Source: Vicinamibacteria bacterium
GTDB lineage: Bacteria > Acidobacteriota > Vicinamibacteria > Marinacidobacterales > Marinacidobacteraceae
DNA: 64,000 bases
Reading direction: 5' to 3'
Assembly (NCBI GenBank): GCA_963668695.2
Contig: CAXXLQ010000004.1
Span: 192,001 to 256,000, forward strand
The notes under the pieces are model-generated. The model made no database searches and had not been told where the DNA came from. It saw only the letters and a program-made list of their open reading frames with translations. This document shows positions 4,617 to 51,046 of this stretch, in pieces; positions within the stretch are counted from its first letter, which is position 1, and every line of letters begins with the position of its first letter. The translations under genes were made by a program, and so were the position numbers.

Positions 4617-5229
4617 CAGCCTGTGGCAAAACCCACGCGGCCCAGTTCTCCCGGTGGGGCTCGACGGGCGATCCATCCCGCCCAAACAACCGGTGATGAA
4701 ACCCACGCGGCCCAGTTCTCCCGGTGGGGGCTCGGCCGGCGATCCATCCCGGCTGAACCGCCTGTAGTGAAACCCGCGCGGCCCAGTTCTCCCGGTGGGG
4801 GCTCGGCCGGCGATCCATCCCGGCTGAACAACCGGTGATGAAACCCACGCGGCCCAGTTCTCCCGGTGGGGGCTCGGCCGGCGATCCATCCCGGCTGAAC
4901 CGCGTCGCTTTCGCGCCGCTCATCGTTGCGCTTCGGTCGGAATACACTCGGGCCAGTTCTCCCGGTGGGGGCTCCTCCCTCACGCGCCTTGTCAGCCGGG
5001 CGCCTCGCCCCCACCGGGAGAACTGGCCAGCCTCGGCGCTCACCCGGGTTCCACCACCGGCTGTTCACCGCGTCGCTTCGCGCCGCTCATCGTTGCGTTT
5101 CGGTCGAAATACACCTGGGCCAGTTCTCCCGGTGGGGGCTCCTCCCTCGCGCGCCTTGTCAGCCGGGCCCCCACCCCCACCGGGAGAACTGGCCGGCCTC
5201 GGCGCTCACGTGGGTTTCACCACAAGCTG
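4617..5229. mobile_element. Composite family-A repeat (613 bp, internally amplified modules)
   Basis: CTAA|CAGCCTGTGG...CCACAAGCTG|TTAA; the left flank is the fur stop codon; ~70-bp internal tandem units. Confidence 0.9.
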
Positions 5230-5247
5230 TTAACGGCGCCCGGCGCT

Positions 5248-5981: not shown

Positions 5982-6635
5982 TCAAGACCGAGGGGACGGG
6001 CGCCGGCGGAAAGCGCGGGCCGTAGCGCAGAGCCCGTTCATCCAGGGTGCGTAGCGGGTGGAGTCTCCCGCCGGTTCGAAGCCGGCCCGGAGTAGCACCC
6101 GCTCGGAAGCAACATTGCCCGGGACCACCAATCCGAACAATTCCGCCCCGTCGAAGCGGGCCACTGCGAAACGGACGGCGCCCTGCACGGCCTCGGTCGC
6201 GTAGCCAAGCCCCCAGACCGGCCTCGCGAAGCAATAGCCGATCTCCACCAGGCCGGGCGCCTTTTCTTCGAGGCTGAGACCGCCGCGTACCCGCACGCTC
6301 TTCCGCTCCACGACGGCCAGGTCGAGGCGCGACCCGTCGGGAGACCGGGTGTGCGCGATGGCTTGTCGCAGGAAACGAAGCGTTTCGGATGCGGGATTCG
6401 GCCCCCAACGAAGGAAACGGGTGACCTCGGGATCGCTCGCGTACTCATGGACGTCCGAAAAGTCCGCCTCGCGAAAGGGCCGAAGGATGAGGCGCTCGCT
6501 ACGGAGCGGGAGCCCCGCCGGGCGAGCCCCTTCCCTATCCACGCTGAATCGTGCTCCGTCGGCTCGTTTCAGCGAGCCCATCTGCTCCTCCGGATCCACG
6601 ACGGATGGAGATTGGGGCCCCTCATCGGCTGACAA
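5982..6635 (-). CDS. GNAT family N-acetyltransferase (RimJ/RimL-like)
   Basis: LRSERLILRPF, EIGYCF..WGLGYATEAV, NVASERVL; start uncertain (TTG 6635 or ATG 6581). Confidence 0.85.
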   Translation of the reverse strand: MSADEGPQSPSVVDPEEQMGSLKRADGARFSVDREGARPAGLPLRSERLILRPFREADFSDVHEYASDPEVTRFLRWGPNPASETLRFLRQAIAHTRSPDGSRLDLAVVERKSVRVRGGLSLEEKAPGLVEIGYCFARPVWGLGYATEAVQGAVRFAVARFDGAELFGLVVPGNVASERVLLRAGFEPAGDSTRYAPWMNGLCATARAFRRRPSPRS

Positions 6636-6745
6636 TCTGTGGATGGAGCGACGTGAGCGCAGCGAGCGGCCAGTCCTCCCGGTGGGGGGCAGTTCAGCAG
6701 GGATGCATCGCCGCTCGGACGCCGCGTGACTTTGTCCACAGGCTG
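6633..6745. mobile_element. Short (113 bp) family-A repeat
   Basis: CTGA|CAATCTGTGGA...TGTCCACAGGCTG|CTAG, containing the 20-bp module. Confidence 0.8.
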
Positions 6746-6789
6746 CTAGGGAGCGAGGTCGCGTCAGGCAGGGAATTCAGGCGGGGGAT

Positions 6790-11576: not shown

Positions 11577-11934
11577 GACCCGGCCGGTAAGAACAGTCTG
11601 AATCCCGAACTGGCCAGCACCGAAGGCGGAAGGACCAGCGCCGCAGACGGAAGGACCAGCGCTGCAGACGGAAGGAACTGCCGGCGTCGAACCGGAAGGT
11701 TCGGCGCCCGCCTGACGGGGGGGAAAGTGTGAAAGGGGAAACTCCCCCTTTCACAAAAAGACAGCTCCGAAGTCGGAACTCGCCGCCCATGCCGCCATCT
11801 TGAGATCACGTCGTGGACCGGCCTGGTGACAGGGCGGGAGTTCCGACTTCAGGCGCGAAGCGCCGAGCGGCTTCCGGGCGGGGTCCTTTCAGCCTGACAC
11901 AGGGATCAGCCGGACCGCGAGTACGGGCTGACCC
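11577..11934. repeat. Structured repeat family C, copy 1 (358 bp, three 21-bp internal units)
   Basis: Near-identical to 12151-12466 apart from two extra 21-bp units (CCAGCRCYG.AG.CGGAAGGA). Confidence 0.9.
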
Positions 11935-11949
11935 TTTCTGGGAACCCAG

Positions 11950-12147
11950 CAGCCGGTGGACAAAGTCGCGCGGCGTTCAAGCGGCGATGCATCCCGGCTG
12001 AGACGCCCCGCTTCGCGCGGCTCATCGTTGCGCTTCGGTCGAAATACACCCGGTATTCCTCCCTCGCGCGCCTTGTCAGCCGGGCGCCTCGCCCCCACCG
12101 GGAGAACTGGCCGCTCTCGGCGCTCACGCCACTTTGCCCACCGGCCG
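11950..12147. mobile_element. Family-A repeat (198 bp)
   Basis: CCAG|CAGCCGGTGGACAAAG...CTTTGCCCACCGGCCG|CTAG. Confidence 0.88.
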
Positions 12148-12150
12148 CTA

Positions 12151-12466
12151 GACCCGGCCGGTAAGAACAGTCTGAATCCCGGACTGGCCAGCGCTGCAGA
12201 CGGAAGGAACTGCCGGCGTCGAACCGGAAGGTTCGGCGCCCGCCTGACCGGGGGGAAAGTGTGAAAGGGGGAACTCCCCCTTTCACAAAAAGACAGCTCC
12301 GAAGTCGGAACTCGCCGCCCATGCCGCCGTCTTGAGATCACGTCGTGGACCGGCCTGGTGACAGGGCGGGAGTTCCGACTTCAGGCGCGAAGCGCCGAGC
12401 GGCTTCCGGGCGGGGTCCTTTCAGCCTGACACAGGGATCAGCCGGACCGCGAGTACGGGCTGACCC
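12151..12466. repeat. Structured repeat family C, copy 2 (316 bp)
   Basis: Direct repeat of 11577-11934; long stem GAAGTCGGAACTC...GAGTTCCGACTTC. Confidence 0.9.
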
Positions 12467-12493
12467 CGCCCGGGAGCCGCTAGACCCGGAGCG

Positions 12494-24480: not shown

Positions 24481-24539
24481 GCAGATTTGCGCAACGTTAC
24501 GGCTTCGAAAATCCGCGTGCCCGCGACCCCGAGCGTTAA

Positions 24540-24754
24540 CAGCCTGTGGACAGAGTGGCGTGAGCGCCGAGAGCGGCGAGGCGCCCGGCTGACAAGGCGC
24601 GCGAGGGAGGAGCCCCCACCGGGAGAACTGGCCCGGGTGTATTTCGACCGAAGCGCAACGATGAGCGACGCGAAGCGGCGCGGTTCAGCCGGGATGCATC
24701 GCCGCTCGAGCCCCCACCGGGAGAACTGGGCCGCGTGATTTTGTCTACAGGCTG
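24540..24754. mobile_element. Family-A repeat, unit copy (215 bp) with TTAA duplication
   Basis: TTAA|CAGCCTGTGGACAGA...TTTGTCTACAGGCTG|TTAA; the right TTAA contains the pheA stop. Confidence 0.92.
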
Positions 24755-25594
24755 TTAATGTGAGGTGCGCACCGGATCGGCCGGATAGACCCCCAGGATC
24801 CTGACCGACCGGGAGAAGAAGCGGAGTTCTTCGAACGCCTTCGCCACCCCGGAGTGCTCGGGATGGCCGGCCACGTCACAGTAGAACTGGGTCGAAGTGA
24901 ACGAGCCGTCCAGCATGTAGCTTTCGAGCTTCTGCATGTTCACTCCATTGGTCGCGAACCCACCGAGCGCCTTGTAGAGGGCGCCCGGGAGATTCCGCAC
25001 CTGGAACACGAACGTAGTGATCGCGTCGGCGTCGCGCGGAACCGTAACCGGCTCCCGGGCCATGACGAGGAACCGGGTGATGTTCAGCGAGATGTCCGCG
25101 ATGTCCGGCGCCAGAATCGAGAGTCCGTGAATCCCAGCGGCAAGCGCCGAGGCGATCGCCGCTTTCGTGGGGTCTCCGCTTCTCGCGATCATTATCGCGG
25201 CCCCGGCGGTATCCGCCTCCGCCACTGGGCGGAGGCGTCGGCCGCGGATGAATTGCCGGCACTGGGCGAGCGCGTGCGGGTGGCTGTGGACGGTCCGGAG
25301 TCCGCCGAGCCTGGCTCCGGGCAGCCCGAGGAGCTGGTGCCGCACCCGGTGAAAGGCTTCACCGACGATTTGCAGACGGGATTCGGGCAGGAGGCGATGG
25401 ATGTCGGCGACTCGTCCGGCGACCGAATTCTCGATGGGGATCATCGCGAGTTCCGCGCTCCCCTCGGCCACTGCCGCGAACGCGTCCTCAAAGCCCTCGA
25501 AGGACAGCGGCTCATGATCCGGATGCCGGTCCCGACAGGTCAGGTCGGAGTAGGAGCCGGGGTGTCCCTGAAACGCGATTTTCGGTCCGGACAT
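24755..25594 (-). CDS. pheA: Prephenate dehydratase
   Basis: IAFQGHPGSYS, IPIENS, SHPHALAQC, NITRF and ACT domain PGALYKALGGFATNGVNMQKLES. Confidence 0.94.
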   Translation of the reverse strand: MSGPKIAFQGHPGSYSDLTCRDRHPDHEPLSFEGFEDAFAAVAEGSAELAMIPIENSVAGRVADIHRLLPESRLQIVGEAFHRVRHQLLGLPGARLGGLRTVHSHPHALAQCRQFIRGRRLRPVAEADTAGAAIMIARSGDPTKAAIASALAAGIHGLSILAPDIADISLNITRFLVMAREPVTVPRDADAITTFVFQVRNLPGALYKALGGFATNGVNMQKLESYMLDGSFTSTQFYCDVAGHPEHSGVAKAFEELRFFSRSVRILGVYPADPVRTSH

Positions 25595-30368: not shown

Positions 30369-31280
30369 GCGCTGGTCGGCGTAGGGGTGGGGCGCACCGG
30401 CGTGGTCCGGGGCAGAAACACAATCATTGGTCAGGCGGGCGCCCCACCCCTACGCCGAACGGCACTTCGTGCCTCCGAATCGGAACTCGCCGCATCTGTG
30501 CGGGGAAAGTCTGAACCATCAAGCACGATCCCTACGCGGCGAGTTCCGATTCGCGCTGTCTGTCTTGTGAACGGGGGGCAGGCCCCCCTTTCACTCTTTC
30601 CCCCCGATACCGGCGGGCAGCGAACAAAGTTCGCTGCCATTGTTTTCCCGTGGGTCAGCACACCTCCACCCGGACAGAACGAGCCGCCGCTCAGGGAACA
30701 CCAGCGCTGGTCGGCGTAGGGGTGGGGCGCACCGGCGTGGTCCGGGGCAGAAACACAATCATTGGTCAGGCGGGCGCCCCACCCCTACGCCGAACGGCAC
30801 TTCGTGCCTCCGAATCGGAACTCGCCGCATCTGTGCGGGGAAAGTCTGAACCATCAAGCACGATCCCTACGCGGCGAGTTCCGATTCGCGCTGTCTGTCT
30901 TGTGAACGGGGGGCAGGCCCCCCTTTCACTCTTTCCCCCCGATACCGGCGGGCAGCGAACAAAGTTCGCTGCCATTGTTTTCCCGTGGGTCAGCACACCT
31001 CCACCCGAACAGAACGAGCCGCCGCTCAGGGAACACCAGCGCTGGTCGGCGTAGGGGTGGGGCGCACCGGCGTGGTCCGGGGCAGAAACACAATCATTGG
31101 TCAGGCGGGCGCCCCACCCCTACGCCGAACGGCACTTCGTGCCTCCGAATCGGAACTCGCCGCATCGTGCTTGTAAAGTCTGAACCATAAGCACGATCTA
31201 GCCGCAGGCGAGTTCCCTTTCGCGCTGTCCTTCTTGTGAACGGGGGAGTACCCCCGCCCACACCCACCCCCCGTTCACGC
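30369..31280. repeat. Tandem array of 335-bp structured units (two near-identical units plus a diverged partial third)
   Basis: Units start at 30369, 30704 and 31039; each has the inverted pair CGTAGGGGTGGGGCGC/GCGCCCCACCCCTACG and the family-C core. Confidence 0.92.
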
Positions 31281-31283
31281 CGT

Positions 31284-31447
31284 GCGGGAACGCCGGTCTT
31301 CAGACCGGCACCGCTGCCCACAGGGCAGCGAAAGGGAAAGACGCCAAACACCGGCATGGCTCCCGTCTCGGCACGTACCCCCGTGGGAGGAGTGGCCCGC
31401 AGGCACGGGAACGCCGGACCTCCGGTCGGCATCGCGCGGGAGCGCGA
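31284..31447. repeat. Two REP-like GGGAACGCCGG...CGGCA palindromic units
   Basis: GGGAACGCCGGTCTTCAGACCGGCA (~31286) and GGGAACGCCGGACCTCCGGTCGGCA (~31407); related to 19865. Confidence 0.55.
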
Positions 31448-32186: not shown

Positions 32187-33788
32187 TCAGTTCTGCGGCT
32201 CTTCCGCCTCCGGGCGGACCGTGGGGTACTCGATGCCCAACTGCTCGAGATAGCTGTCGTAGTTGTCCGGGTCGTAGTAAAGGGGCCGCATCGCTTCCCG
32301 GAACGAGTCCATCCGGTCCTCGTTCAGGTGAATCCCGGGAGGATCGTCGGGGCCGATCAGCGGGGTGTACTGGTGCTCGGCCGTCTGCTCAGCGAAGTAC
32401 TCCTTCGCCGCCGGGACGAGTTCGGGATCGAGCAAGAGATCCATGAGGGTCATGGCAATCACCCGCGCCCCGGCGGACGCTCCCTTGTGAGCAATTGGAG
32501 TCGCCATCGCCACCGCGTTCGCCCAGTGGTGCCCCGGGCCGCCCGGAATGTTCGACGGGAAGCGCAGGGTCACCGTCGGAACGGCCCAGGAAATGTCGCC
32601 GATGTCGTCGGAGCCGCCTCCGAGACGCGGTTCCTGTACGGGGCCGCCCATCTCGCCGAGTTCGGTTGCGAGGCCCTGTTCCTCGACTCCGAGTTCGCGC
32701 TGGAGCCCCTTGGCGAGCGCCTGATCGGCCTCGCTCCACTCCGGAAGCCCCACCCGCTCGACGTTCGCCCAGGCCGCTTCGGCGACCGGCTTGTTGAAGT
32801 GGCGCGGGTACGCGTGCCCCAGAATGCGCCAGGACACGTCGGTCGACGTCATCGCGGCGGCGGACTGCGCCATCGTGTTACCGAGATCGAAGAGCTCCTT
32901 CATCCCGGGCTGTTCGAGTTCGCGGAAGTAGTACCAGACCGACGCGAGCTGGGGCACCACGTTCGGCTGGTCGCCCCCGTTCGTGATCACGTAGTGCGAA
33001 CGATGCGGCAGGCGTAGATGCTCGCGCTTGACGTTCCACGCCATGTTCATGATCTCCACCGCGTCGAGCGCGCTTCGGCCCCGCCACGGCGCTCCCGCGG
33101 AGTGCGCCGATTCGCCCCGGAAGGTGTATTCGACCGACACCAGGCCATTGCCCCTGCCCTGTCCCCAGCTCACCCCGAACCGGTTGGAGACATGGGTGAA
33201 GATGCAGATGTCCACATCCTCGAAATAGCCGTCCCGGATGAACCAGGCCTTGGTGCCCACGAGTTCTTCTGCCACTCCGGGCCAGATGACGATCGTCCCG
33301 GAAATGCCTTCCCGCTCCATGACTTCCTTGGCGGCAAGCGCTCCCACGACGATCACGGCCTGCCCCGAGTTGTGCCCCTCGCCGTGGCCCGGGGCGCCGT
33401 CCACCAGGGGATCGTGATACGCCACCCCGGGCTTTTGGGACGCCTTCGGAATCCCGTCGATGTCGCTGCCGAGCGCGATCACCGGTGAGCCGGACCCCCA
33501 CCGCGCCATCCAGGCGGTGGGGATGCCGGCGATCCCCTCCTCCACCTCGAACCCGTTCTCCCGCAGGATGTCCGTGATGTAACGGGAGGTCTCGAACTCC
33601 TGGAAGCCCAGTTCGCCGAAGCTGAAGATGGAATCCACCATCACCTGGACCAGCTTGGCCCGCTCGGCGGCGCCCTGATCGGCGACCGGACGCAGGGTTT
33701 CGAGATCCTGGGCCGCGAGCGGCGCGGCGAGCAGGAGAGCGAGAAGGGCGGCCGGCAGGGACCGCAAGAGCTGTGACAGTGCGCGCAT
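32187..33788 (-). CDS. Secreted M20 amidohydrolase (AbgB-like), paralog 1
   Basis: Signal peptide; ELGFQEFETS, GHGEGHNSG, GVAEE, RSALDAVE, GGDQPNVVP, GGGSDDIGDISW. Confidence 0.9.
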   Translation of the reverse strand: MRALSQLLRSLPAALLALLLAAPLAAQDLETLRPVADQGAAERAKLVQVMVDSIFSFGELGFQEFETSRYITDILRENGFEVEEGIAGIPTAWMARWGSGSPVIALGSDIDGIPKASQKPGVAYHDPLVDGAPGHGEGHNSGQAVIVVGALAAKEVMEREGISGTIVIWPGVAEELVGTKAWFIRDGYFEDVDICIFTHVSNRFGVSWGQGRGNGLVSVEYTFRGESAHSAGAPWRGRSALDAVEIMNMAWNVKREHLRLPHRSHYVITNGGDQPNVVPQLASVWYYFRELEQPGMKELFDLGNTMAQSAAAMTSTDVSWRILGHAYPRHFNKPVAEAAWANVERVGLPEWSEADQALAKGLQRELGVEEQGLATELGEMGGPVQEPRLGGGSDDIGDISWAVPTVTLRFPSNIPGGPGHHWANAVAMATPIAHKGASAGARVIAMTLMDLLLDPELVPAAKEYFAEQTAEHQYTPLIGPDDPPGIHLNEDRMDSFREAMRPLYYDPDNYDSYLEQLGIEYPTVRPEAEEPQN

Positions 33789-33918
33789 CGGGAGCAACCT
33801 CATTCTTCGCCGGCGCTCCCCATCCCGAGGAGCGCCGGGCGCACGATTCTAGTGGCCCGCGGGTGGTCTCCTGACCGCCGTTTTAGGGCCGCCTTAGGGC
33901 CGCCAAGCGCGACTTCCG

Positions 33919-35511
33919 TCAGTTCTCCGGGTTTTCCCGAACCGTCGGGTACTCGATACCGAGCTGTTCCAGGTAGCTGTCGTAGCGATCCGGGTCGTAG
34001 TAGAACGGCCGCATCGCCTCCCGGAAAGAGTTCATCCGATCCTTGTTCAGGTGAATCGCCGGAGGATCGTCCGGGCCGATCAGCGGGGTGTACTGGTGTT
34101 CCGCAGTCTGCTCGGCAAAGTACTCCTTGGCTGCCGTCACCAGCGACGGATCGAGGAGCAGGTCCATCAGCGTCATCGCGATGACCCGGGCGCCGGCGAG
34201 CACTCCCTTGTGCGCGATCGGGGTCGCCATCGCCACGGCGTTCGCCCAGTGGTGACCCGGGCCGCCCGGGATGTTCGACGGGTAGCCCAGGGTCACGGTC
34301 GGGACATTCCAGGAGATGTCGCCGATGTCGTCGGAGCCGCCGCCGAGCCGTGGCTCACGCGCCGGACCGCGTATCTCGCCGAGTTCGGTCGCGAGGCCCC
34401 GCTCCTCGACTCCCAACTCGCGTTGGAGGCCGTTGGCGAGCGCCTGGTCCGCGTCGCTCCACTCGGGAAGCCCCACTCGCTCGATGTTCGCCCACACCGC
34501 CTCGGCCACCGGTTTGTTGAAGTGGCGCGGATAGGCATGGCCCAGGATGCTCCATGAGGCCTCGGTGGAGGTCATCGCCGCCGCGGCATTGGCCATCGTG
34601 TTTCCGAGATCGAAGAGTTCCTTGATGTGGGGCTGGTCGAGTTCGCGGAAGAAGTACCAGACCGACGCGAGCTGCGGCACCACGTTCGGCTGGTCGCCAC
34701 CGTTCGTGATCACGTAGTGCGAGCGGTGCGGAAGGCGCAGGTGCTCGCGCTTGATGTTCCAGGCGGCGTTCATGATTTCGACGGCGTCAAGCGCGCTCCG
34801 GCCCCGCCAGGGCGCCCCCGCCGAGTGCGCCGACTCGCCCACGAACGTGTATTCCACCGACACCAGGCCGCTGCCGCCGCCCTGTCCCCAACTCACCCCG
34901 AACCGGGAGGAGACGTGGGTGAAGATGTTGATGTCCACGTCGTTGAAATAGCCGTCCCGGATGAACCAGGCCTTCGTGGCCAGCAGCTCCTCAGCCACCC
35001 CCGGCCAGATCACCAGAGTTCCGGGGATGCCCTCGCGTTCCATGATCTCCTTGGCCGCGAGCGCTCCCACGACGATCACGGCCTGCCCCGAGTTGTGGCC
35101 TTCGCCATGGCCCGGGGCGCCCTCGACCAGGGGATCGTGATACGCCACCCCGGGCTTCTGGGACGCCTTCGGAATGCCGTCGATGTCGCTGCCGAGCGCG
35201 ATGACGGGCGAACCCGACCCCCAGCGCGCCATCCAGGCGGAGGGGATGCCGGCGATCCCCTCCTCGATCTCGAACCCGTTCTCCCGCAGGATGTCGGTGA
35301 TGTAGCGCGAGGTCTCGAATTCCTGAAAGCCGAGTTCCCCGAAGCTGAAGATGGAGTCCACCATCACCTGGACCAGCTTGGCCCGCTCAGCAGCGCCCTG
35401 GTCGGCGACCGGCCGCAGGGTTTCAAGATCCTGCGCCGCGAGGGGCGCGGCGAGCAACACGGCGAGAAGGACGACCGGCAGGGACCGCAAGAGCTTGGTC
35501 AGGGTGCGCAT
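33919..35511 (-). CDS. Secreted M20 amidohydrolase (AbgB-like), paralog 2
   Basis: Same motifs; colinear with and highly similar to paralog 1; start MRTLTKLLRS at 35511. Confidence 0.9.
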   Translation of the reverse strand: MRTLTKLLRSLPVVLLAVLLAAPLAAQDLETLRPVADQGAAERAKLVQVMVDSIFSFGELGFQEFETSRYITDILRENGFEIEEGIAGIPSAWMARWGSGSPVIALGSDIDGIPKASQKPGVAYHDPLVEGAPGHGEGHNSGQAVIVVGALAAKEIMEREGIPGTLVIWPGVAEELLATKAWFIRDGYFNDVDINIFTHVSSRFGVSWGQGGGSGLVSVEYTFVGESAHSAGAPWRGRSALDAVEIMNAAWNIKREHLRLPHRSHYVITNGGDQPNVVPQLASVWYFFRELDQPHIKELFDLGNTMANAAAAMTSTEASWSILGHAYPRHFNKPVAEAVWANIERVGLPEWSDADQALANGLQRELGVEERGLATELGEIRGPAREPRLGGGSDDIGDISWNVPTVTLGYPSNIPGGPGHHWANAVAMATPIAHKGVLAGARVIAMTLMDLLLDPSLVTAAKEYFAEQTAEHQYTPLIGPDDPPAIHLNKDRMNSFREAMRPFYYDPDRYDSYLEQLGIEYPTVRENPEN

Positions 35512-37318: not shown

Positions 37319-37912
37319 GTGATTCGAGACCAGATTCTCATTCCGCACGTAATCGAGCAGACCGGGCGTGGGGAACGCGCCTACGACATCTATTCCCGAC
37401 TGCTCAAGGACAACATCGTCTTTATCGGGCAAGAGATCAGCGATGGGCTCGCGAACACCGTGGTCGCCCAACTCCTGTTCCTGGAATCCGAAGACCCGGA
37501 AAAAGAAGTCTCGCTCTATATCAACTGCCCGGGTGGCTCCGTGAGCGCCGGCCTCGCGATCTACGACACACTGCAGTTCATTCGACCGGACGTGACCACC
37601 TATTGCCTGGGTCAGGCGTCCAGCATGGGAGCGATCCTGCTCGCCGCCGGGGCCCACGGAAAGCGATTCGCACTCCCGAACGCCACCGTCATGATCCACC
37701 AGCCACTCGGCGGCGCCCGGGGTCAAGCGACCGACATCCAGATCCAGGCCAACGAGATCATGCGGGTCCGCGCGCGCCTCACCGAAATCCTCGCCCACCA
37801 CACCGGCCGTTCGTCGGAAGAGATCGCGCGCGACATCGAACGGGACCGCTACATGACCGCGGAGGAAGCGAAGGCCTACGGGATCGTGGACTCCGTCATC
37901 GAGCACCGCTAG
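37319..37912 (+). CDS. clpP: ATP-dependent Clp protease proteolytic subunit
   Basis: [42 protein letters not shown]. Confidence 0.97.
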
Positions 37913-38074
37913 CAGCGGCGGACTCGCTCGCCGGATGAATTCGGCACGGTCGCGGCTCGGCGGGAAGACCCGCCGGGTGGGGCCGCGGCCGCTTGCATCC
38001 TGACCCCAAAACGGGCACACTGGCTCGTCACACCGGCGCTGCTTCTGCGCCCGGATTCCGTCTGCGAATCGCCC

Positions 38075-40714
38075 ATGAAATCACAAACTGCCGTTAACAG
38101 CCTGTGGTGGAACCCGGGTGAGTGCCGAGAGCGGCGAGGCGCCCGGCTGACAAGGCGCGTGAGGGAGGAATACCGGGTGTATTTCGACCGAAACGCAACG
38201 CAGAACGGAGCGGAGCGGAGTGGTTCAGCCGGGATGGATCGCCGCTCGAGCCCCCACCGGGAGAACTGGGCCGCCTGGGTTTCACCACAGGCTGTTAAGA
38301 CGGGGCTCTCGCTCCTGCTCTTGGTGGCGGGCGCCGCTTTCGGGGCGGCGGCCGCGGGTTCTGCCGCTATCGCAGAGCCCCCGCGCGTGGCGGAAACCAC
38401 ACCATCCGACGCCGCGGCGAACCGCGTCGTGCGCAGCACCTGCGTCATGTGCCACAACGATCGGCTCCGGACCGGCAACCTGTCGCTCCAGGAGTTCGAC
38501 GTGACGAACGCGGCCGAGCACGCCGACGTCGCCGAGGAGATGGTCCGGAAGCTGCGGGCCGGCATGATGCCGCCGCCCGGCGCGCGCCGGACGGGCAGCG
38601 AGGCGCTCCTGACGCTGGTCGAGACCCTGGAACACCGTCTCGATGAGGCCGCCGCCCTGGCCCCCGACCCGGGCAACCGGCCCTTCCAGCGCCTCAACCG
38701 CTCGGAATACGAGAAGGCGATTCGCGACCTGCTCGGGCTCGAGGTGGACGCCGGAAACTGGCTGCCGCTCGATCCGGTGAGCCACAACTTCGACAACATC
38801 GCCGAGGCCCAGACACTTTCGGCCACGCTGCTCGAGGCCTACCTGAATGCGGCCAGCTCCATCAGCCGCCTCGCGGTCGGCCAGCGAAGCGGGAAGGCGG
38901 TGGATTCAACCTACACCAACTCGCAGTACCTGTCGCAGCATCCGTGGGACCATGTCGAGGGCGCTCCGTACGGCACCCGGGGCGGGCTGGTCGTGAACCA
39001 TGTGTTCCCGGCCGATGCCGAGTACACCTTCGGGGTGACGTTCACCTCCGGGGACAACACCCGCATCGAGGACATCGACGTCTCGATCGATGGTGAGCGG
39101 GTCGCGCTGCTGGCCTACGACACCAACCGCGTGACCGGTGCTGACGGTCGGGGAAGCGTGATCACCCTGACCCCGCGCGTCTCCGTCCGGGCCGGAGCGC
39201 GGCGCATCGCAGCCGCTTTCATCCGGCACCAGGATGGGCCCTACGAGGATCTGATCCGCCCCCACGACTGGTCGTACGCCGGAGGCGGCTCGGGCGGCGC
39301 GGGCATCACAACGCTCCCGCACGTCCGCGACGTCATCATTACCGGCCCCTACAACGCGACCGGCCTGTCGGATACGGCCAGCCGGCACCGCATCTTCACC
39401 TGCCGTCCGACCGCTGCCGACGAGGCGCGGCCCTGCGCCAGCCGGATTCTCGCCCGGCTGGGCCGCGAAGCCTACCGGCGGACCCTCGACGACCGCGAGG
39501 TCGAAGACCTGCTCGCTTTCTTCGAAGAGGGCGCCGACGACGGCGGCTTCGAGGTTGGAGTGCGAACGGCGCTCGAGGCGATGCTCGCGAGCCCGCATTT
39601 CGTGCTGCGGCTGGAACGGGAACCGCTGGACGCCCCGGAGCGGGGCTACCGGTTGAGTGACGTGGACATCGCCTCGCGGCTCTCGTTCTTCCTGTGGGGG
39701 ACGCCCCCGGATGACGAGCTCCAAGTGCTCGCGGACGAGGGCCTGTTGACGCCAGAGGAACTGGATCGGCAGGCGCTGCGCATGCTCGCCGATCCGCGCG
39801 CCGCGGCGCTCGGCCCCCGCTTCGCCGCGCAGTGGTTCCGGCTACAGGACATGGACAAGGTCCGGCCCGACCCGAACTTCTTCCCCAATTTCGACGAAAA
39901 CCTGGCGGAGGCGATGCGGAGCGAGACCGAGTTGTTCTTCGCCAACCTGGTCCAGGAAGACCGGAGCCTGTTTGACCTCTTCCAGGCCGACTACACGTTC
40001 GTCAACGAGCGGCTCGCGCGCCACTACGGCCTTCCGGGAGTGGCCGGACGGCACTTCCGGCGCGTCCGCTACCCCGACGATACCCGCCGCGGGATCCTCG
40101 GCCACGGCAGCGTGCTGGTGCTTACCTCGCTCGCCAACCGCACCTCACCGGTGCTGCGCGGCAAGTGGGTGATGGAGGTGCTGCTCGGCACTCCGCCGCC
40201 CCCACCGCCGCCCGACATCCCCGCGCTCGAGGACATCGAAGAAGTGAACGAGGGCCGGCGGCTCACCACCCGCGAGCGGATGGAGATGCACGCCGCCAAC
40301 CCGAGTTGCAACTCCTGTCACCGGCTGATCGATCCGATCGGGCTCGCCCTCGACAACTTCGACGTGACAGGCAAATGGCGCCTACGCGAGAACGGCGGCC
40401 CACTGGATACGCTCGGCGACTTTTACGACGGCACGCCGGTTTCCTCGCCAAGCGAGTTGGTGGACGCCCTGCTGGTGCGGCCCATTCCGCTGGCGCGCAC
40501 TTTCACGGAAAACCTGTTGGCCTTCGCGGTCGGCCGGCCGATCGAAGCGTTTGATCAGCCGACCATCCGCAACATCGTTCGAGAGGCCGAGGCGAACGAT
40601 TCCCGCATGGCGTCGTTCATCATGGGCGTCGTCCGAAGCGACGCCTTCCAGCGCAAACGGTCGACCGAACGCGCAAGCCAGACAACAGCAGCACCAGAGA
40701 GCAGCAGCAACTGA
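38075..40714 (+). CDS. Exported c-type-heme DUF1592-family protein (DUF1587/1595/1592/1588/1585 architecture) with an in-frame repeat insertion in the signal peptide
   Basis: CVMCH and CNSCH heme motifs, MMPP, RLNRSEY..IRDLLG, ASRLSFFLW, RTSPVLRGKWV, IDPIGLALDNFD. Confidence 0.88.
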   Translation: MKSQTAVNSLWWNPGECRERRGARLTRRVREEYRVYFDRNATQNGAERSGSAGMDRRSSPHRENWAAWVSPQAVKTGLSLLLLVAGAAFGAAAAGSAAIAEPPRVAETTPSDAAANRVVRSTCVMCHNDRLRTGNLSLQEFDVTNAAEHADVAEEMVRKLRAGMMPPPGARRTGSEALLTLVETLEHRLDEAAALAPDPGNRPFQRLNRSEYEKAIRDLLGLEVDAGNWLPLDPVSHNFDNIAEAQTLSATLLEAYLNAASSISRLAVGQRSGKAVDSTYTNSQYLSQHPWDHVEGAPYGTRGGLVVNHVFPADAEYTFGVTFTSGDNTRIEDIDVSIDGERVALLAYDTNRVTGADGRGSVITLTPRVSVRAGARRIAAAFIRHQDGPYEDLIRPHDWSYAGGGSGGAGITTLPHVRDVIITGPYNATGLSDTASRHRIFTCRPTAADEARPCASRILARLGREAYRRTLDDREVEDLLAFFEEGADDGGFEVGVRTALEAMLASPHFVLRLEREPLDAPERGYRLSDVDIASRLSFFLWGTPPDDELQVLADEGLLTPEELDRQALRMLADPRAAALGPRFAAQWFRLQDMDKVRPDPNFFPNFDENLAEAMRSETELFFANLVQEDRSLFDLFQADYTFVNERLARHYGLPGVAGRHFRRVRYPDDTRRGILGHGSVLVLTSLANRTSPVLRGKWVMEVLLGTPPPPPPPDIPALEDIEEVNEGRRLTTRERMEMHAANPSCNSCHRLIDPIGLALDNFDVTGKWRLRENGGPLDTLGDFYDGTPVSSPSELVDALLVRPIPLARTFTENLLAFAVGRPIEAFDQPTIRNIVREAEANDSRMASFIMGVVRSDAFQRKRSTERASQTTAAPESSSN
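38098..38294. mobile_element. Family-A repeat (197 bp plus TTAA duplication) inserted in frame in a CDS
   Basis: TTAA|CAGCCTGTGGTGGAACCCGGG...CCTGGGTTTCACCACAGGCTG|TTAA; 21-bp terminal inverted repeats with 2 mismatches. Confidence 0.95.
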
Positions 40715-40724
40715 GGAGTAGATC

Positions 40725-42140
40725 ATGTCCCTGATTACCGGAAAGCACCTGCCCCGCCGGACCTTCCTGCGTGGCGTGGGGGCCTCTGTCGCCCTCCCGT
40801 TCCTGGATGCAATGGCGCCGGCCGGCCGCTCGGGCCGCAACGTCGCGTCAGCGGCGGAGGCCAAGGACGTGACCCGCCTCGTCTGCATCGAGGAGGTGCA
40901 CGGGCTGCCCGGCTGCAACAAGTGGGGCGCCAGCCGTCACCTGTTCGCGCCGGCCACGGAGGGTCGCGACTTCGAGCTGCTACCCGAGAACGCCTTGAAG
41001 CCTCTGGAGCCGTTCCAGGACTACCTGACGATCGTCAGCAACACCGATGTCAGGATGGCCGAGGCGTTCACCGGGCCGGAGATCGGCGGGGACCACTTCC
41101 GGTCCTCCGCAGTCTTCCTGACCCAGTCCCACCCGAAGCAGACACAGGGTTCCGACATCTGGTGCGGCACTTCGCTCGACCAGCTCTACGCGCAGCGGTT
41201 TGGCCAGGCCACGCCGATGCCGTCGCTACAGCTCTGCATCGAGAACCTGGATCAGGCCGGCGGCTGCACCTACAACTACTCCTGCGCCTATACCGACTCG
41301 ATCAGCTGGGCGTCGCCGAACGACCCCCTGCCGATGATCCGCGACCCGCGCATTGCCTTCGAGATGCTCTTCGGGGCGGGCAGCAGTCCGGAGGAGCGCG
41401 CCGAGCGCCGGGCTACCCGCCGCAGCATCCTCGACTGGATCCTCAGCGACGTGGCCGAGGTCCGAAACGAACTCGGCAATCTGGACCGCCTCCGGATGGA
41501 TCGCTATCTCGACCACGTCCGCGAGGTCGAACGGCGCATCCAGATGGTCGAGGGCCACAACGAGAGCGGGGAGGCGCGGGATCTGCCTGACGCCCCACCC
41601 GGCGTGCCGGACTCGTTCTCCGAGCACATGCGGCTCATGTTCGATCTCCAGGTACTGGCGCTGGAGACCGATATGACCCGGGTGGTCGCGTTCAAGACGG
41701 GGCGCGATGCCCAGAACCGCTCGTTCCCGGACAGCGGCACGAACTCACCCTTCCATCCCGCCTCGCACCACGGAAACAACGAAGAGCGGATCATGGACTT
41801 CAATTCGATCTGCCAGTACCGCGTGGGCCAGCTCCCCTACTTCCTCGAGCAGCTCAAGAACACCACGGAAGGCGGCGTCTCCCTGCTCGACAAGACCGCG
41901 ATCATCTGGGGCTCGCCGATGGCCGACTCCAACATCCACAACCACCGGCGCGCGCCGCTGATCTTCTTGGGCCGGGCCAACGGGCATCTCACCGGAAACC
42001 TTCACGTGAAGGCGCCGGACGAGACGCCGATGGCCAACGCGATGCTCGCGCTTATGCAGTCGCTGGGCCTCGAGACGGATTCCTTCGGCGACAGCAACGG
42101 CATCCTTCCGGTGTCGGCGTCGCCGCTGGACACCGATTAG
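40725..42140 (+). CDS. DUF1552 (HXXSHH) family protein with Tat-like signal
   Basis: LPRRTFLRGVGASVALPFLDAM, YSCAYTDSISW and FHPASHHG; GAGGAG ribosome-binding site. Confidence 0.88.
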   Translation: MSLITGKHLPRRTFLRGVGASVALPFLDAMAPAGRSGRNVASAAEAKDVTRLVCIEEVHGLPGCNKWGASRHLFAPATEGRDFELLPENALKPLEPFQDYLTIVSNTDVRMAEAFTGPEIGGDHFRSSAVFLTQSHPKQTQGSDIWCGTSLDQLYAQRFGQATPMPSLQLCIENLDQAGGCTYNYSCAYTDSISWASPNDPLPMIRDPRIAFEMLFGAGSSPEERAERRATRRSILDWILSDVAEVRNELGNLDRLRMDRYLDHVREVERRIQMVEGHNESGEARDLPDAPPGVPDSFSEHMRLMFDLQVLALETDMTRVVAFKTGRDAQNRSFPDSGTNSPFHPASHHGNNEERIMDFNSICQYRVGQLPYFLEQLKNTTEGGVSLLDKTAIIWGSPMADSNIHNHRRAPLIFLGRANGHLTGNLHVKAPDETPMANAMLALMQSLGLETDSFGDSNGILPVSASPLDTD

Positions 42141-42172
42141 CCGTCCGGGGCTCGCGGACAGGGGGAAAACCA

Positions 42173-44035
42173 GTGCGCCTGAAAGGAACTTCAAGTCGTC
42201 TCTGCGCCGTCGCCGCGGCGCTGCTGATCGCCGGCGGCGCGATTTCGGCTCCGCCCGTGGCGGCGCCGGTCGCCGACGCCGCGCGCCTCGGCGACCTCGC
42301 TGCGGTACGGGCCCTGCTTGCCCAGGGTGAGGACGCCAACGCCGCGCACGGAGACGGCATGTCGGCCCTGCACTGGGCCGCCGAGCGGGGTGACACGGAA
42401 CTCGTCGAAACGCTCCTGCAGGGCGGCGCCAGCGTGGACGCGGTAACCCGCATCGGGAACTACGCGCCGCTGCACGTGGCGAGCGCCGCCGGCCAGGCGG
42501 AGGTCGTCGAATTGCTGCTTCGAGCGGGATCCGACGCGACCAGCGCCACGAGCACGAGCGGAGCGACGCCGCTGCACCTTGCCGCCAATTCCGGGAGCGT
42601 CGCGACGATCACCGCACTGATCGACCACGGGGCCGCGGTGGACGCGCCGGAGAAGACGTGGGGGCACACGCCGCTGATCTTCGCGGCGGCGCGCAACCGC
42701 GTGGATGCGATCCGTGCGCTGCTGGAGCGCGGGGCAGACCCGGCGGCCACTGCAAAGAAGGTGGACCTGTTGGCCGATTACAAGTTGGCCGAGGCGGCCA
42801 AGAAGCGGCAACAGGCCGTGCTGGAGGCGTTCGCCGTGGGGGACGCCGAGCCGACTTCCAGCCAGGTGCAGGCCGCGGTGCTCGCGGCCCGTGATCTCTA
42901 CCTTGCCGGGGAGGCCCCCGAAGATGAGAGCGAGGACGACGATCCGTTTGCCCGCTTCCGCCGGCCGCAACTGGAGGCCAAGGGCGGCATGACGGCTCTG
43001 CTGCATGCGGCTCGGCAGGGGTACCACGACGCCGCGACGGCGCTCCTCGACGGCGACGCCGACATCAATCAGGTCTCGGAAGGGGACGGCACCAGCCCGC
43101 TGCTGATGGCCACGATCAATGGGCAGTTCGATCTGGCGCTCCAGCTCCTCGAGCGCGGCGCCGATCCCAATATCGCGGACCACACGAATGGGGTGACCCC
43201 GCTATGGGCCGCCGTCAACGCCGAGTGGCAGCCTCGCACCCGGTTTCCGCAACCGCAGGAACACGGTTTCCAGAAGGCGAACTATCTGGACGTGATGCGA
43301 GCGCTACTCGATGCCGGCGCGGATCCGAATGTCCGAATCAAGAAGCATCCCTGGTACATGGTCTATAGCGGCTGCGGCAACGCCAACTGCGGGCTCGTGA
43401 ACACCGCGGGCGCGACCGCGTTCTGGCGGGCCGCCTATGCGACCGACGTGCCGGCGATGCGCCTGCTCGCGGAACACGGCGCCGATCCGAACATCCCTAC
43501 CACGGCGCCGGAGCCGCGTCGGAGGCGGGGCGGTACGACGGCCGTAAACGACGAAAAAAAGGGTTCGCTCTCGGCCCTGCCCGCCGCGCCCGGCCTGTGG
43601 ATCCCGACCGACTTGACCTCCATGGGACCCGACCCATCCGGCCTGCCGCCGTACAAGGCCGGGGATCCGGGGGTTTATCCGATCCACGCCGCCTCGGGGG
43701 TTGGCTACGGCGAGGGCTTCGCGGGGAATGCGCATCGTCACGTAAAGGACGCCTGGCTGGCGTCAGTCCAGTACCTGGTCGAACTGGGCGCCGACATCAA
43801 ACAGCGGGACTTCAAGGGCTACAACGCTCTCCACCACGCGGCCGCCCGCGGCGACAACGACCTGATCCTCTATCTGGTCGAGAATGGAGGAGATGTCACC
43901 GCCGTGAGCCGGCTCGGCCAGACGACGGCTGACATGGCGAATGGTCCGGTACAGCGGGTCTCGCCGATTCCCGCGACCGTGGCGCTGCTGGAGAGCCTGG
44001 GCTCGAAGAACAACCACAACTGCGTCTCTTGCTAA
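42173..44035 (+). CDS. Secreted ankyrin-repeat protein
   Basis: Signal peptide; repeated G.TPLH.AA..G units; C-terminal NNHNCVSC. Confidence 0.92.
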   Translation: MRLKGTSSRLCAVAAALLIAGGAISAPPVAAPVADAARLGDLAAVRALLAQGEDANAAHGDGMSALHWAAERGDTELVETLLQGGASVDAVTRIGNYAPLHVASAAGQAEVVELLLRAGSDATSATSTSGATPLHLAANSGSVATITALIDHGAAVDAPEKTWGHTPLIFAAARNRVDAIRALLERGADPAATAKKVDLLADYKLAEAAKKRQQAVLEAFAVGDAEPTSSQVQAAVLAARDLYLAGEAPEDESEDDDPFARFRRPQLEAKGGMTALLHAARQGYHDAATALLDGDADINQVSEGDGTSPLLMATINGQFDLALQLLERGADPNIADHTNGVTPLWAAVNAEWQPRTRFPQPQEHGFQKANYLDVMRALLDAGADPNVRIKKHPWYMVYSGCGNANCGLVNTAGATAFWRAAYATDVPAMRLLAEHGADPNIPTTAPEPRRRRGGTTAVNDEKKGSLSALPAAPGLWIPTDLTSMGPDPSGLPPYKAGDPGVYPIHAASGVGYGEGFAGNAHRHVKDAWLASVQYLVELGADIKQRDFKGYNALHHAAARGDNDLILYLVENGGDVTAVSRLGQTTADMANGPVQRVSPIPATVALLESLGSKNNHNCVSC

Positions 44036-46227: not shown

Positions 46228-46230
46228 GCT

Positions 46231-46358
46231 CGACCGAAGCGCAACAACGAGCGACGCAAAGCGCCAGTTCTCCCGGTGGGGGGGCGGTTCAGCCGGGATG
46301 GATCGCCGGTCGAGCCCCCACCGGGAGAACTGGGCCGCGTGACTTCATCTACCGGCTG
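46231..46358. repeat. Partial (right-half) family-A repeat
   Basis: CGACCGAAGCGCAAC...CTACCGGCTG|CTAA with two 20-bp modules. Confidence 0.8.
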
Positions 46359-46395
46359 CTAAGTCCGTCCGGACCCTTCCTGCCACTTCTCATCC

Positions 46396-48377: not shown

Positions 48378-48411
48378 TCGCCGCCGCGCAACCTTCGCCA
48401 CCGACTGCTGG

Positions 48412-48951
48412 CAGCCCGTGGACAACGTGGTGTGAGCGCCGAGAGCGGCCAGTCCTCCCGGTGGGGGCGAGGCGCCCGGCTGACAAGGCGCGCGAGGGAG
48501 GAGCCCCCACCGGGAGAACTGGCCCGGGTGTATTGCGACCGAAACGCAACGATGAGCGGCGCGCAGCGACGCGGTTCAGCCGGTGGTGGAACCCACGTGA
48601 GCGCCGAGGCCGGCGAGGCCCAGTTCTCCCGGTGGGGCCAGTTCTCCCGGTGGGGGCCCGGCTGACAAGGCGCGTGAGGGAGGAGCCCCCACCGGGAGAA
48701 CTGGCCCGGGTGTATTGCGACCGAAACGCAACGATGAGCGGCGCGCAGCGACGCGGTTCAGCCGGGATGGATCGCCGGCCGAGCCCCCACCGGGAGAACT
48801 GGGCCGCGCGGGTTTCATCACCGGCTGTTTGGCCGGGATGGATCGCCGGCCGAACGCCGCGTCGGTTTCATCAGCGGTTGTTTGGCCGGGATGCATCGCC
48901 GCTCGAGCCCCCACCGGGAGAACTGGGCCGCACAACTTTGTTCACCGGCTG
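48412..48951. mobile_element. Composite family-A repeat (540 bp)
   Basis: CTGG|CAGCCCGTGGACAA...TTGTTCACCGGCTG|CTAT; duplicated internal modules. Confidence 0.9.
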
Positions 48952-48970
48952 CTATTATTTGCGCCCTCAA

Positions 48971-49397: not shown

Positions 49398-50513
49398 ATG
49401 ACCAGGAAGACCGCGACCGGAACCGGAACCGTCGGCGCGGGGATCGAAGCCGCGCTCGCCGCCGCCAGAGAGCGGTACCAGGAGGTAACCGAGCGGCTCG
49501 CAAACCCCGCGGTCCTCGCGGATCCGGCAGAGCTCAGACGTCTCTCCACCGTTCATTCCGAACTCGAGCCACTCATCGAGGCCGGGAGCCGTCACCGGGA
49601 ACTCGGCGAGCAGCTCGAAGAAGCGCTCGAGATGGAGCGAGACCCCGATCCGGAAATGGCGGAGTTCGCAGCCGGAGAAGCCACGGAGACCCGCGCCAAA
49701 CTGGATCGGGTCGCCGACGAGATTCGGCGCCGGCTGCTTCCGAAAGATCCGAACGACGACCGCAACGTGTTGCTCGAAGTGCGGGCCGGCACCGGCGGCG
49801 AGGAGGCGGCTCTATTCGCCCGCGAGGTCTTCCGGATGTACGAGCAGTACGCAAGGTCCAACGGGTTCCGGGTGGACGTGGTATCCAGTCAGGAATCCCC
49901 AGTGGGGGGCATCAAGGAAATCGTCTCGGTCATCGAGGGAAAGGGCGCTTTCAGCCGGCTCAAGTTCGAAAGCGGCGTGCACCGGGTGCAGCGGGTGCCG
50001 GCTACCGAAGCGTCGGGGCGGATTCACACCTCCGCGGTCACCGTAGCCGTGCTCCCGGAGGCGGAAGACGTGGAGATTCAGATCGATCCCAAGGATCTCC
50101 GGGTGGACACTTTCTGCTCTTCCGGCCCCGGCGGTCAGAGCGTGAACACCACCTACTCCGCGGTGCGCATCACCCACCTCCCCTCCGGTCTCGTGGTCAG
50201 TTGCCAGGACGAAAAGTCCCAGATCAAGAACAAGGCGAAGGCGCTGAGGGTGCTGAAATCCCGGCTGCTCGAACTGGCGCGCCAGGAGCAGCAGGACCAG
50301 GTTGCCGAGGCGCGGCGCGGACAGATAGGCCGCGGTGACCGGAGCGAGAAGATCCGAACCTACAACTTCAAGGAAAACCGGATCACCGACCACCGGATCG
50401 CGCTCACCCTGCATTCCCTCCCGAACGTTCTGAGAGGAGAGCTCGATCCCCTGATCGAGCCGCTCCACGCCCGCGAACAGGCGGACCGTCTAAAGGCGCT
50501 GAACGGCCCGTGA
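49398..50513 (+). CDS. prfA: Peptide chain release factor 1
   Basis: EVRAGTGGEEA, ESGVHRVQRVPATE (PxT), GPGGQSVN, RSEKIRTYNF. Confidence 0.97.
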   Translation: MTRKTATGTGTVGAGIEAALAAARERYQEVTERLANPAVLADPAELRRLSTVHSELEPLIEAGSRHRELGEQLEEALEMERDPDPEMAEFAAGEATETRAKLDRVADEIRRRLLPKDPNDDRNVLLEVRAGTGGEEAALFAREVFRMYEQYARSNGFRVDVVSSQESPVGGIKEIVSVIEGKGAFSRLKFESGVHRVQRVPATEASGRIHTSAVTVAVLPEAEDVEIQIDPKDLRVDTFCSSGPGGQSVNTTYSAVRITHLPSGLVVSCQDEKSQIKNKAKALRVLKSRLLELARQEQQDQVAEARRGQIGRGDRSEKIRTYNFKENRITDHRIALTLHSLPNVLRGELDPLIEPLHAREQADRLKALNGP

Positions 50514-51046
50514 CCAAAGTCACGCGGCCCAGTTCTCCCGGTGGGGGCTCGAGCGGCGATGCATCCCAGCCAAACAGCCTGTGATGAAACCCGCGCGGCG
50601 TTCGGCCGGCGATCCATCCCGGCCAAACAACCGGTGATGAAACCCACGCGGCCCAGTTCTCCCGGTGGGGGCTCGGCCGGCGATCCATCCCGGCTGAACC
50701 GCGTCGCTTCGCGCCGCTCATCGTTGCGCTTCGGTCGCAATACACCCGGGCCAGTTCTCCCGGTGGGGGCTCCTCCCTCACGCGCCTTGTCAGCCGGACC
50801 CCCACCGGGAGAACTGGGCCTCGCCCCCACCGGGAGGACTGGCCGCTCTCGGCGCTCACGTGGGTTCCACCACCGGCTGTTCACCGCGCCGCTTCGCGCC
50901 GCTCATCGTTGCGCTTCGGTCGCAATACACCCTGTATTCCTCCCTCACGCGCCTTGTCAGCCGGACCCCCACCGGGAGAACTGGGCCTCGCCCCCACCGG
51001 GAGGACTGGCCGCTCTCGGCGCTCATGTCACTGTGCCCGCGGGCCG
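50504..51046. mobile_element. Composite family-A repeat (543 bp) supplying the prfA stop codon
   Basis: CGGCCCGTGACCAAAG...GTGCCCGCGGGCCG|TTAG; similar to the 48412 copy in the opposite orientation. Confidence 0.9.

Follow-up and report, generated by a model that had tools for sequence, protein, structure and literature searches.

In-frame palindromic elements ahead of predicted signal-peptide cores in a vicinamibacterial lineage

A 201-bp non-autonomous hairpin has inserted at codons 7-8 of a gene for a predicted exported DUF1592 protein, at a site that is empty in orthologs, and it is probably tolerated there because its 67 residues would extend only the cytoplasmic n-region of a predicted cleaved signal peptide, with read-through that would be followed by cleavage. 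In a hand-curated census of two genomes, open copies of the same element family were concentrated in n-regions beyond the expectation from target sites, a result that is statistically supported, and the best reading of these data is that n-regions are a tolerated niche for the family. If true, n-regions would be a predictable refuge for selfish DNA inside genes, and the natural filled, empty and excised allele pairs would probe the n-region length and charge tolerated by Sec and lipoprotein signals, up to 176 extra residues.

The element and its host gene

The window analyzed was the whole 64,000-nucleotide stretch of contig CAXXLQ010000004.1, and coordinates are counted from its first base. 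The following features bear on the insertion.

37319..37912, + strand: clpP (Pfam PF00574), the upstream synteny anchor, which adjoins the ortholog in 13 genus members
37993..38021, + strand: putative promoter-like pair TTGCAT, 17 bp, CACACT, conserved in 5 aligned genomes and not matching the consensus (consensus scan, 0 sites)
38075..40714, + strand: intact 879-aa gene (ORF, Pfam) with DUF1587/1595/1592/1588/1585 domains and two CxxCH motifs, predicted exported; dN/dS 0.18
38075..38095, + strand: native start and n-region codons 1-7, without a Shine-Dalgarno (SD) motif; the same 19 nt in G001, G004 and G008, and a matching Met in 12 empty orthologs
38094..38097, no strand: left flanking 4-mer TTAA (sequence)
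38098..38294, + strand: MITE core, 197 bp, a rod-like hairpin of a several-hundred-copy family (sequence, fold, family search)
38098..38118, + strand: left terminal inverted repeat (TIR), 19/21 matching (arm comparison)
38164..38179, + strand: GGAGG, 8 nt, in-frame GTG of the element, a possible internal start (sequence; anti-SD at the 16S end; gene-caller starts of P0184, P0232, P0243 and P0245)
38234..38236, + strand: second possible in-frame internal start (ATG), without a well-spaced SD (sequence; gene-caller starts of P0238 and P0242)
38252..38269, + strand: optional 18-nt module (6 codons), missing from the 61-aa alleles at the DUF1592 site (18-bp length steps; P0232, P0238 and P0241 lack it)
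38274..38294, - strand: right TIR (arm comparison)
38295..38298, no strand: right flanking 4-mer TTAA, with Val-Lys restored ahead of the hydrophobic core (sequence)
38306..38356, + strand: hydrophobic core and small-residue c-region of the predicted Sec signal peptide (sequence; character conserved in orthologs)
38441..38455, + strand: first CxxCH haem-c-type motif of the mature protein (sequence), kept in 23/23 top orthologs
40725..44035, + strand: downstream operon partners, a DUF1552 gene and an ankyrin-repeat gene, both intact (ORFs, Pfam)

The earlier note, made from the sequence alone, had described an element with 21-bp TIRs and a perfect TTAA duplication lying exactly in frame inside the gene. 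The insert was confirmed: the 197-bp core and 4 bp make up 201 bp, or 67 stop-free codons, placed after codon 7, and the 879-aa ORF at 38075-40714 is open. The terminal arms are present and are imperfect, with 19 matches in the first 21 positions, 12 contiguous. TTAA stands on both sides and the net gain is that of the core plus 4 bp, but a palindromic TTAA cannot demonstrate duplication. The exact frame is true here and is by itself unremarkable, because lengths that are multiples of 3 are common in the family (198 of 349 clusters add one) and a random family member leaves the frame open in 18% of cases overall; by orientation, 51% of reverse copies in the Leu phase and 16% of forward copies in the phase seen here are open.

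The element is a MITE, being short, bounded by TIRs, devoid of a transposase, present in high copy number, dispersed, and found with both filled and empty orthologous sites. It has no long ORF and no transposase coding capacity, and its RNA folds as a single rod (-117.8 kcal/mol, z = -8.5, with 0 of 200 shuffles as good). A search of Rfam with the element returned no match at E <= 1, and a scan for sigma-70 promoters and terminators gave 0 sites. An assembly artefact was rejected on the grounds that both junctions occur with 0 mismatches in the X4 and X5 contigs and that G001, another genome of the genus, carries the same insert as the source genome (G000).

When the 201 bp were removed in silico, the resulting N-terminus was the one given in the earlier note, and it is also the real N-terminus of database protein P0233. 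The view that the element lengthens an Arg-rich n-region did not hold, since the native n-region is not Arg-rich and the Arg-rich part is the insert itself (13 R, 8 D/E). The signal has the features of a Sec signal peptide, namely, a basic residue, a hydrophobic core and a small-residue cleavage region, as judged by inspection and ortholog conservation, and the Lys beside the hydrophobic core is retained in the filled allele. CxxCH motifs imply export before haem attachment. Rerouting to Tat was rejected; a Tat signal has RRxFLK just ahead of the hydrophobic core (PMC9360617), and no FLK accompanies the Arg pairs of the insert, which stand 18 or more residues ahead of that core. The dN/dS of the mature region between G000 and G001 was 0.18 (dS 0.21), with 0.14-0.20 for the other nine pairs, no decay was seen downstream of the insert, and G000 has 6 matches to the DUF1592 family. 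A dN/dS of 0.18 points to a working gene and need not reflect time spent with the insert; it says nothing of long tolerance, because the insert may be recent or recombined and empty alleles exist in the same species.

Filled, empty and probably excised alleles

The ortholog adjoining clpP was found in 13 of the 15 other genus genomes, with G001 filled and 12 empty. All 12 empty orthologs begin with Met-Lys/Arg shortly ahead of the hydrophobic core; their starts lie upstream, at the matching ATG, and not downstream of 38298, in agreement with the short N-terminus expected earlier. The first seven residues of the G004 and G008 orthologs are exactly those of G000, and the empty site reads TTAG in G004 and TCAG in G008. 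Among the 15 listed of the 33 members of the gene's protein cluster, 7 were filled and 8 empty. The filled alleles among them comprise 67-aa and 61-aa variants in three sequence backgrounds, and for 6 of these 7 the gene caller placed the start inside the element. Six of the listed empty alleles have Arg at position 8, while P0233, whose sequence is otherwise G000-like, and the divergent P0240 have Lys.

The contigs of runs X10 and X11, from two studies, lack exactly 201 bp at the site and show 1-2 mismatches in the 610 bp that follow it. They read GCT GTT AAG, compared to GCC GTT AGG in G004, and both differing bases are those of the element's right junction. Since these contigs skip 201 bp yet keep two bases typical of that junction, secondary in-frame excision likely occurred in some strains. 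Lys at the position of the excision scar is also common in more distant orthologs, which tempers this reading. Strains carry filled, ancestral-empty and likely excision-scarred alleles. The earlier note had suggested empty-site reads as a check. Empty joints were present in contigs of X10, X11 and, weakly, X12; those of X4 and X5 (depth 63-180) had filled junctions only and no empty joint, contigs being prone to drop rare variants. In X12, a filled left junction at depth 26 stood beside an empty joint with weak support at depth 20; one side of that joint spans just 25 nt, and a second strain may be its source.

Filled junctions were found in DNA contigs of two studies (X4, X5), and the right junction was found with 0 mismatches in RNA-library contigs of one study (X8, X9), which shows presence in the library only. 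The upstream contig of X8 ends at 38029, and 38030-38092 is without cover in X8 and X9, for which there are contigs from that one study. X13 had no cover beyond the element at 97% likeness. A scan of JGI metagenomes gave one ortholog, which was empty (L270), 15 matches to the element frame and one distant homolog.

Between G000 and G001 the element is identical at 204 of 205 positions, and its flanks are 91-96% identical. Because near-identical strains are empty and the element is more alike than its flanks, the insert may be a recent arrival in this lineage or a product of recombination. Orthologous elements in G004 are likewise often more alike than their flanks.

The element family and its insertions within genes

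The family comprises 711 merged loci in G000, 172 of them full-length copies, and G000 has 1,223 TIR-like ends, compared to none in a shuffled megabase. Of 41 genomes searched, 32 had matches, among them all 15 other genus members, and core lengths step by 18 bp (179/197/215/233/251/269). For the 357 clusters, 108 orthologous sites were resolved in the 2.8 of 3.67 Mb of G004 covered: 52 were empty, 50 were filled, often with another module count, and 6 were other. Exactly one 4-mer stood at 39 of about 52 empty G004 sites, giving a net gain of core plus 4 bp, and the targets are mostly YTAR. The flanks of 144 informative copies were identical 4-mers in 12, had mirror-complementary inner dinucleotides in 108 and were neither in 24. 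A classical 4-bp duplication was rejected as proof of origin because identical flanks occur in just those 12 copies. We infer that insertion duplicates 4 bp and that the flanks are afterwards corrected on the hairpin, although the element may instead insert without any duplication.

G000 has one full-length IS1182 transposase gene (NF033551), and the part of G004 that was covered has at least 8. The IS1182 copies of both genomes have CTAG flanks, and their first 7 terminal bases are common with the element ends. On the strength of these bases and flanks, a transposase of the IS1182 family is the putative mover of the element. No autonomous element with the full TIR was found among the six TIR pairs of G000 that lie 0.5-4 kb apart. 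A REPIN/RAYT system was rejected, with a strong TIR hit at 0 of 21 Y1 loci and no PF01797 match in G000 or G004.

We surveyed insertions within genes on C4 of G000 and in 2.8 of 3.67 Mb (76%) of the G004 chromosome. Candidates with an open frame were screened from all clusters (31 in G000, 18 in G004), together with 74 broken-frame rows. The census was curated by hand after the data had been seen, using our own gene and signal heuristics, and all tests are post hoc. Uncertain cases were excluded: G000 C4:1295844, G004 L206 (open), L153, stop-codon insertions and copies with a conserved downstream start. Of 18 open intragenic insertions, 13 were in signal-peptide, lipoprotein or N-tail positions, 0 were clear at the N-termini of other genes and 5 were elsewhere in genes, two of the last in apparently broken genes; six broken insertions lay elsewhere. 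At N-termini of non-exported proteins no clear open insertion was found, three uncertain candidates having been set aside. The 13 open n-region insertions are as follows.

G000 C4: 230098 (the DUF1592 gene), 109306, 510899, 3015502, 3367059, 3176529 and 3231061
G000 and G004 in common: 2374662/L221
G004: L142, L185, L201, L209 and L228 (BamA)

In G004 the BamA ATG (L228) overlaps the stop of an upstream clpC-like gene. An empty ortholog was found for 10 of the 13 sites, and in two of these cases its N-terminus is divergent. For C4:3176529 and C4:3231061, no N-terminus of an ortholog was seen. Nine of the 13 listed sites are in reverse orientation.

An N-terminal hydrophobic stretch is present in 41% of the 2,489 modelled genes. 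The share of target sites was 3-6% for n-regions, 4-9% for other N-termini and 86-93% for the rest, with YTAR density 4-fold higher at N-termini (0.76-0.79 versus 0.18 per kb). Compared to this share, 13 of 18 open insertions in n-regions gave a P of about 5e-13, and the 13:0 ratio of signal to other N-termini gave a P of 7e-6, or 3e-4 with two doubtful cases added. Of 17 n-region insertions, 13 were open and four frame-broken, compared to 0.18-0.27 open by chance (P 2e-7 to 3e-5); the difference in openness between n-region and internal insertions reached only a Fisher P of 0.05-0.12. The earlier suggestion that the family survives in coding DNA at signal peptides is thus upheld in these hand-curated counts, in which in-frame recurrence in n-regions is far above target-site prediction.

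Protein searches with the two open frames of the element gave 120 listed of 198 matches and 111 of 111. Among 42 listed proteins bearing Pfam domains, the insert was N-terminal before a hydrophobic core in 10, N-terminal without a core in 6, internal in 18 and C-terminal in 8. Internal fusions therefore outnumber N-terminal ones with a core in this listed set (18 versus 10 of 42), mostly in small clusters, and this counts against the n-region niche. Filled and empty n-region alleles occur together in the protein clusters of five further genes, for a beta-lactamase-like lipoprotein, an ankyrin protein, an amidohydrolase, a peptidase and a HEAT-repeat protein. Insert lengths across proteins were 61-176 residues.

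Possible routes to tolerance and comparison with known systems

In Sec export, the n-region remains cytoplasmic and is removed along with the signal. For the DUF1592 gene, ribosomes would start at the ATG at 38075 and read through the hairpin, after which Sec and signal peptidase I would process a signal of about 95-100 residues. The hairpin begins 20 nt past the A of the AUG, and its presence leaves the predicted unpaired fraction of the native start region unchanged (0.52 either way). Sec signals with N-terminal extensions (ESPR, about 25 residues) are exported (PMC8151025). The gene-caller starts inside the element and the length of the ESPR, about 25 residues versus 67 here, count against read-through. 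Before these steps, an IS1182-family transposase would insert the element at one of the rare YTAR sites, the flanks would be repaired with the hairpin as template, and open copies would then accumulate in n-regions, as the hand-curated counts indicate statistically; the near-neutral element would sometimes be deleted in frame by slippage between its flanks.

It is unlikely that the DUF1592 gene is instead translated mainly from the element's GGAGG-8nt-GTG (38177) or ATG (38234), with the openness back to the ATG at 38075 being incidental. The GGAGG-GTG spacing is canonical and the native ATG has no SD, an anti-SD is present at the 16S end, and gene callers choose GTG or ATG within the element, but an SD of GGAG or better precedes just about 28% of called genes, so a missing native SD is normal, and accessibility is lower around the GTG than at the native start (0.41 versus 0.52 unpaired). 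The motif is present in 109 of 205 simple copies, 86 of them open to the element end, and in cluster 6 the forward frame substitutes for the native n-region. However, all filled alleles readable as far as the native ATG (G000, G001 and P0241) have a frame open from it, compared to 16% for a random forward copy, and an internal start leaves the nine reverse-oriented sites unexplained; their orientation favors read-through, since the GGAGG-GTG start belongs to the forward frame. The element's GTG sits 42 residues ahead of the hydrophobic core, and in the forward-oriented DUF1592 copy, part of the protein may start there and give the same mature product.

Still less probable is that the insertion is harmful or inactivating, recent and buffered by paralogs, with the clustering in n-regions produced by rare YTAR sites near gene starts and by annotation bias. 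The six family matches in the genome and the empty and likely excised alleles within the same species would fit this, as would the 4-fold YTAR density at N-termini, yet non-exported N-termini have the same density and no clear open insertion. The absence of downstream decay also argues against harm, as do the occurrence of filled alleles in three backgrounds, two lengths and samples of three studies and the presence of an insertion in the BamA gene. We give almost no credence to a domesticated switch or rheostat that adjusts export or expression of the protein through excision, through restart or through RNase III cutting the hairpin. Hairpin MITEs of Neisseria act via RNase III (PMC2229807), and the exact 201-bp skip with its two retained junction bases in X10 and X11 and the filled and empty joints of X12 could be taken the same way, although the short X12 joint may come from a second strain, the deep X4 and X5 contigs, which drop rare variants, hold no empty joint, and no dedicated recombinase adjoins the site. 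The earlier note had proposed excision or internal re-initiation as an export switch: excision is likely in some strains, but a regulated switch is unsupported, given that the predicted mature protein is identical for both alleles and each keeps an in-frame, intact hydrophobic core.

Read-through followed by cleavage can be set beside several known systems. RPE is a Rickettsia-specific palindromic element of 105-146 bp (PMC2229807). Like RPEs, the present element is a hairpin repeat in the 100-200 bp range whose frame is open; both occur as in-frame fusions within conserved genes and both seem nearly neutral (PMC10969869, PMC2229807). For gmk, an RPE insert is translated and the protein active (PMC2229807). 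The present element differs in its apparently unrelated sequence, in occurring in Acidobacteriota (Vicinamibacteria), in being longer (core, 179-269 bp) and modular in 18-bp steps, in its IS1182-like ends, and in the concentration of its survivors in n-regions, a bias not reported in the available text of PMC10969869 and PMC2229807. By analogy, then, it works like an RPE but is not one; the term RPE-like, used in the earlier note, suits its in-frame palindromic behavior, while the other phylum, the longer core and the lack of an Rfam match set it apart.

Intragenic fusions of enterobacterial RU-2/YPAL and ERIC are also known, such as YPO1552, in which a single predicted signal peptide contains RU-2 (PMC2759123). 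At that one locus, proposed to be a new gene, hydrophobic residues come from the repeat (PMC2759123), whereas here a hydrophilic Arg-rich insert precedes the existing hydrophobic cores of many conserved genes with known empty alleles. MITEs of the IS1182/IS5 type that depend on DDE transposases likewise lack transposase coding and have TIRs, YTAR targets and a net 4-bp gain; in contrast, G000 yielded no transposase gene bounded by the full TIR, and the flanks are mostly mirror-complementary and not duplicated. The ESPR of type 5 secretion proteins is, similarly, an N-terminal extension ahead of a canonical Sec signal that is compatible with export (PMC8151025), but it is a conserved functional module of roughly 25 residues (PMC8151025), while the insert here is mobile and varies from 61 to 176 residues. 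In-frame MITE fusions are already known. Our literature search, with most subscription journals outside it, found no paper describing an n-region bias of MITEs and, among the papers listed, no bacterial test of internalized signals and none naming the host genus.

It is possible, though we would not yet count on it, that n-regions are a general safe harbor for bacterial mobile DNA, in which inserts of 60-180 residues would be read through and then shed by Sec and lipoprotein export, even in essential BamA. Signal peptidase would then act as de facto protein-level excision, an intein-like truce without splicing, and the modular lengths in multiples of 3 and the basic C-terminal frame may be shaped for the niche. 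The inserts shift the hydrophobic core 60-180 residues from the start, which leads gene callers to move the start codon, and signal-peptide predictors would likely miss exported proteins carrying them. Several of the runs that hold the element carry the label sponge metagenome.

Module number and arm co-variation

The copy in the n-region of the DUF1592 gene holds an optional module that is variably present among alleles of this site:

window 38252-38269: optional module, 18 nt, reading frame kept

The lengths of family members change in 18-bp steps because of this module. Family-wide, filled orthologous sites in the source genome (G000) and a second genome of the genus (G004) often differed in module number (for example, at G000 C4:509559, 718010, and 1339443), and within a copy one arm co-varied with the other, with 3.2 mismatches versus 4.6 when shuffled. 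Taken together, these sequence comparisons suggest gene conversion or hairpin repair.

Upstream of the DUF1592 gene, the spacer separating it from clpP (window 37924) was 12 bases longer in the strains represented by two sequencing runs, X10 and X11; this gain resembles a short tandem duplication in G001, another genome of the genus.

Copies at the starts of other exported proteins

The BamA gene of G004 (L228:5890-8526), whose ATG overlaps the stop codon of an upstream ClpC-like gene, carries a reverse copy of 61 codons inserted after codon 4. A second ATG lies downstream of the element, and a shortened signal starting there is therefore also possible. Elsewhere in G004, a copy at L140:12810-12988 breaks the native n-region and contains an in-frame ATG 30 codons upstream of the hydrophobic core, so the element itself possibly supplies the start codon. 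Two composite elements throw the reading frame out of register with the point at which an exported protein appears to begin:

G000 C4:2867135-2867804: composite element, 674 bp
L242:14113-14728 (G004): composite element, 620 bp

One frame was open through the entire composite element in both genomes. A frame-breaking insertion directly 3' of a lipobox was common to G000 (C4:1813561-1813758) and G004 (L196:11854), and the part downstream of it was 98% identical between the genomes.

Other repeats and Y1/RAYT-like genes

The window holds further family copies (single, tandem, and nested) and long direct repeats:

window 254-646, 4607-5235, 6628-6748, 11945-12153, 24535-24758, 46230-46362, 48407-48955, 50506-51028: family copies
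window 11648-12478: direct repeat, 299-nt pair
window 30369-31338: direct repeat spaced at 335 bp, with 300 nt of identity between two copies
window 32215-34237: direct repeat, 82% pair

On a larger scale, C4 at approximately 3.79-3.91 Mb, C1, and C3 of the G000 assembly duplicate other parts of C4, as at 109306 and 3883324. This redundancy agrees with the contamination value of 9%; most counts excluded the tail of C4.

Y1/RAYT-like genes were not found in G000 or G004. One or two per genome were present in 13 of the 15 other genus genomes (L249-L269), and one such locus, L254, was flanked by a tandem repeat of a different kind.
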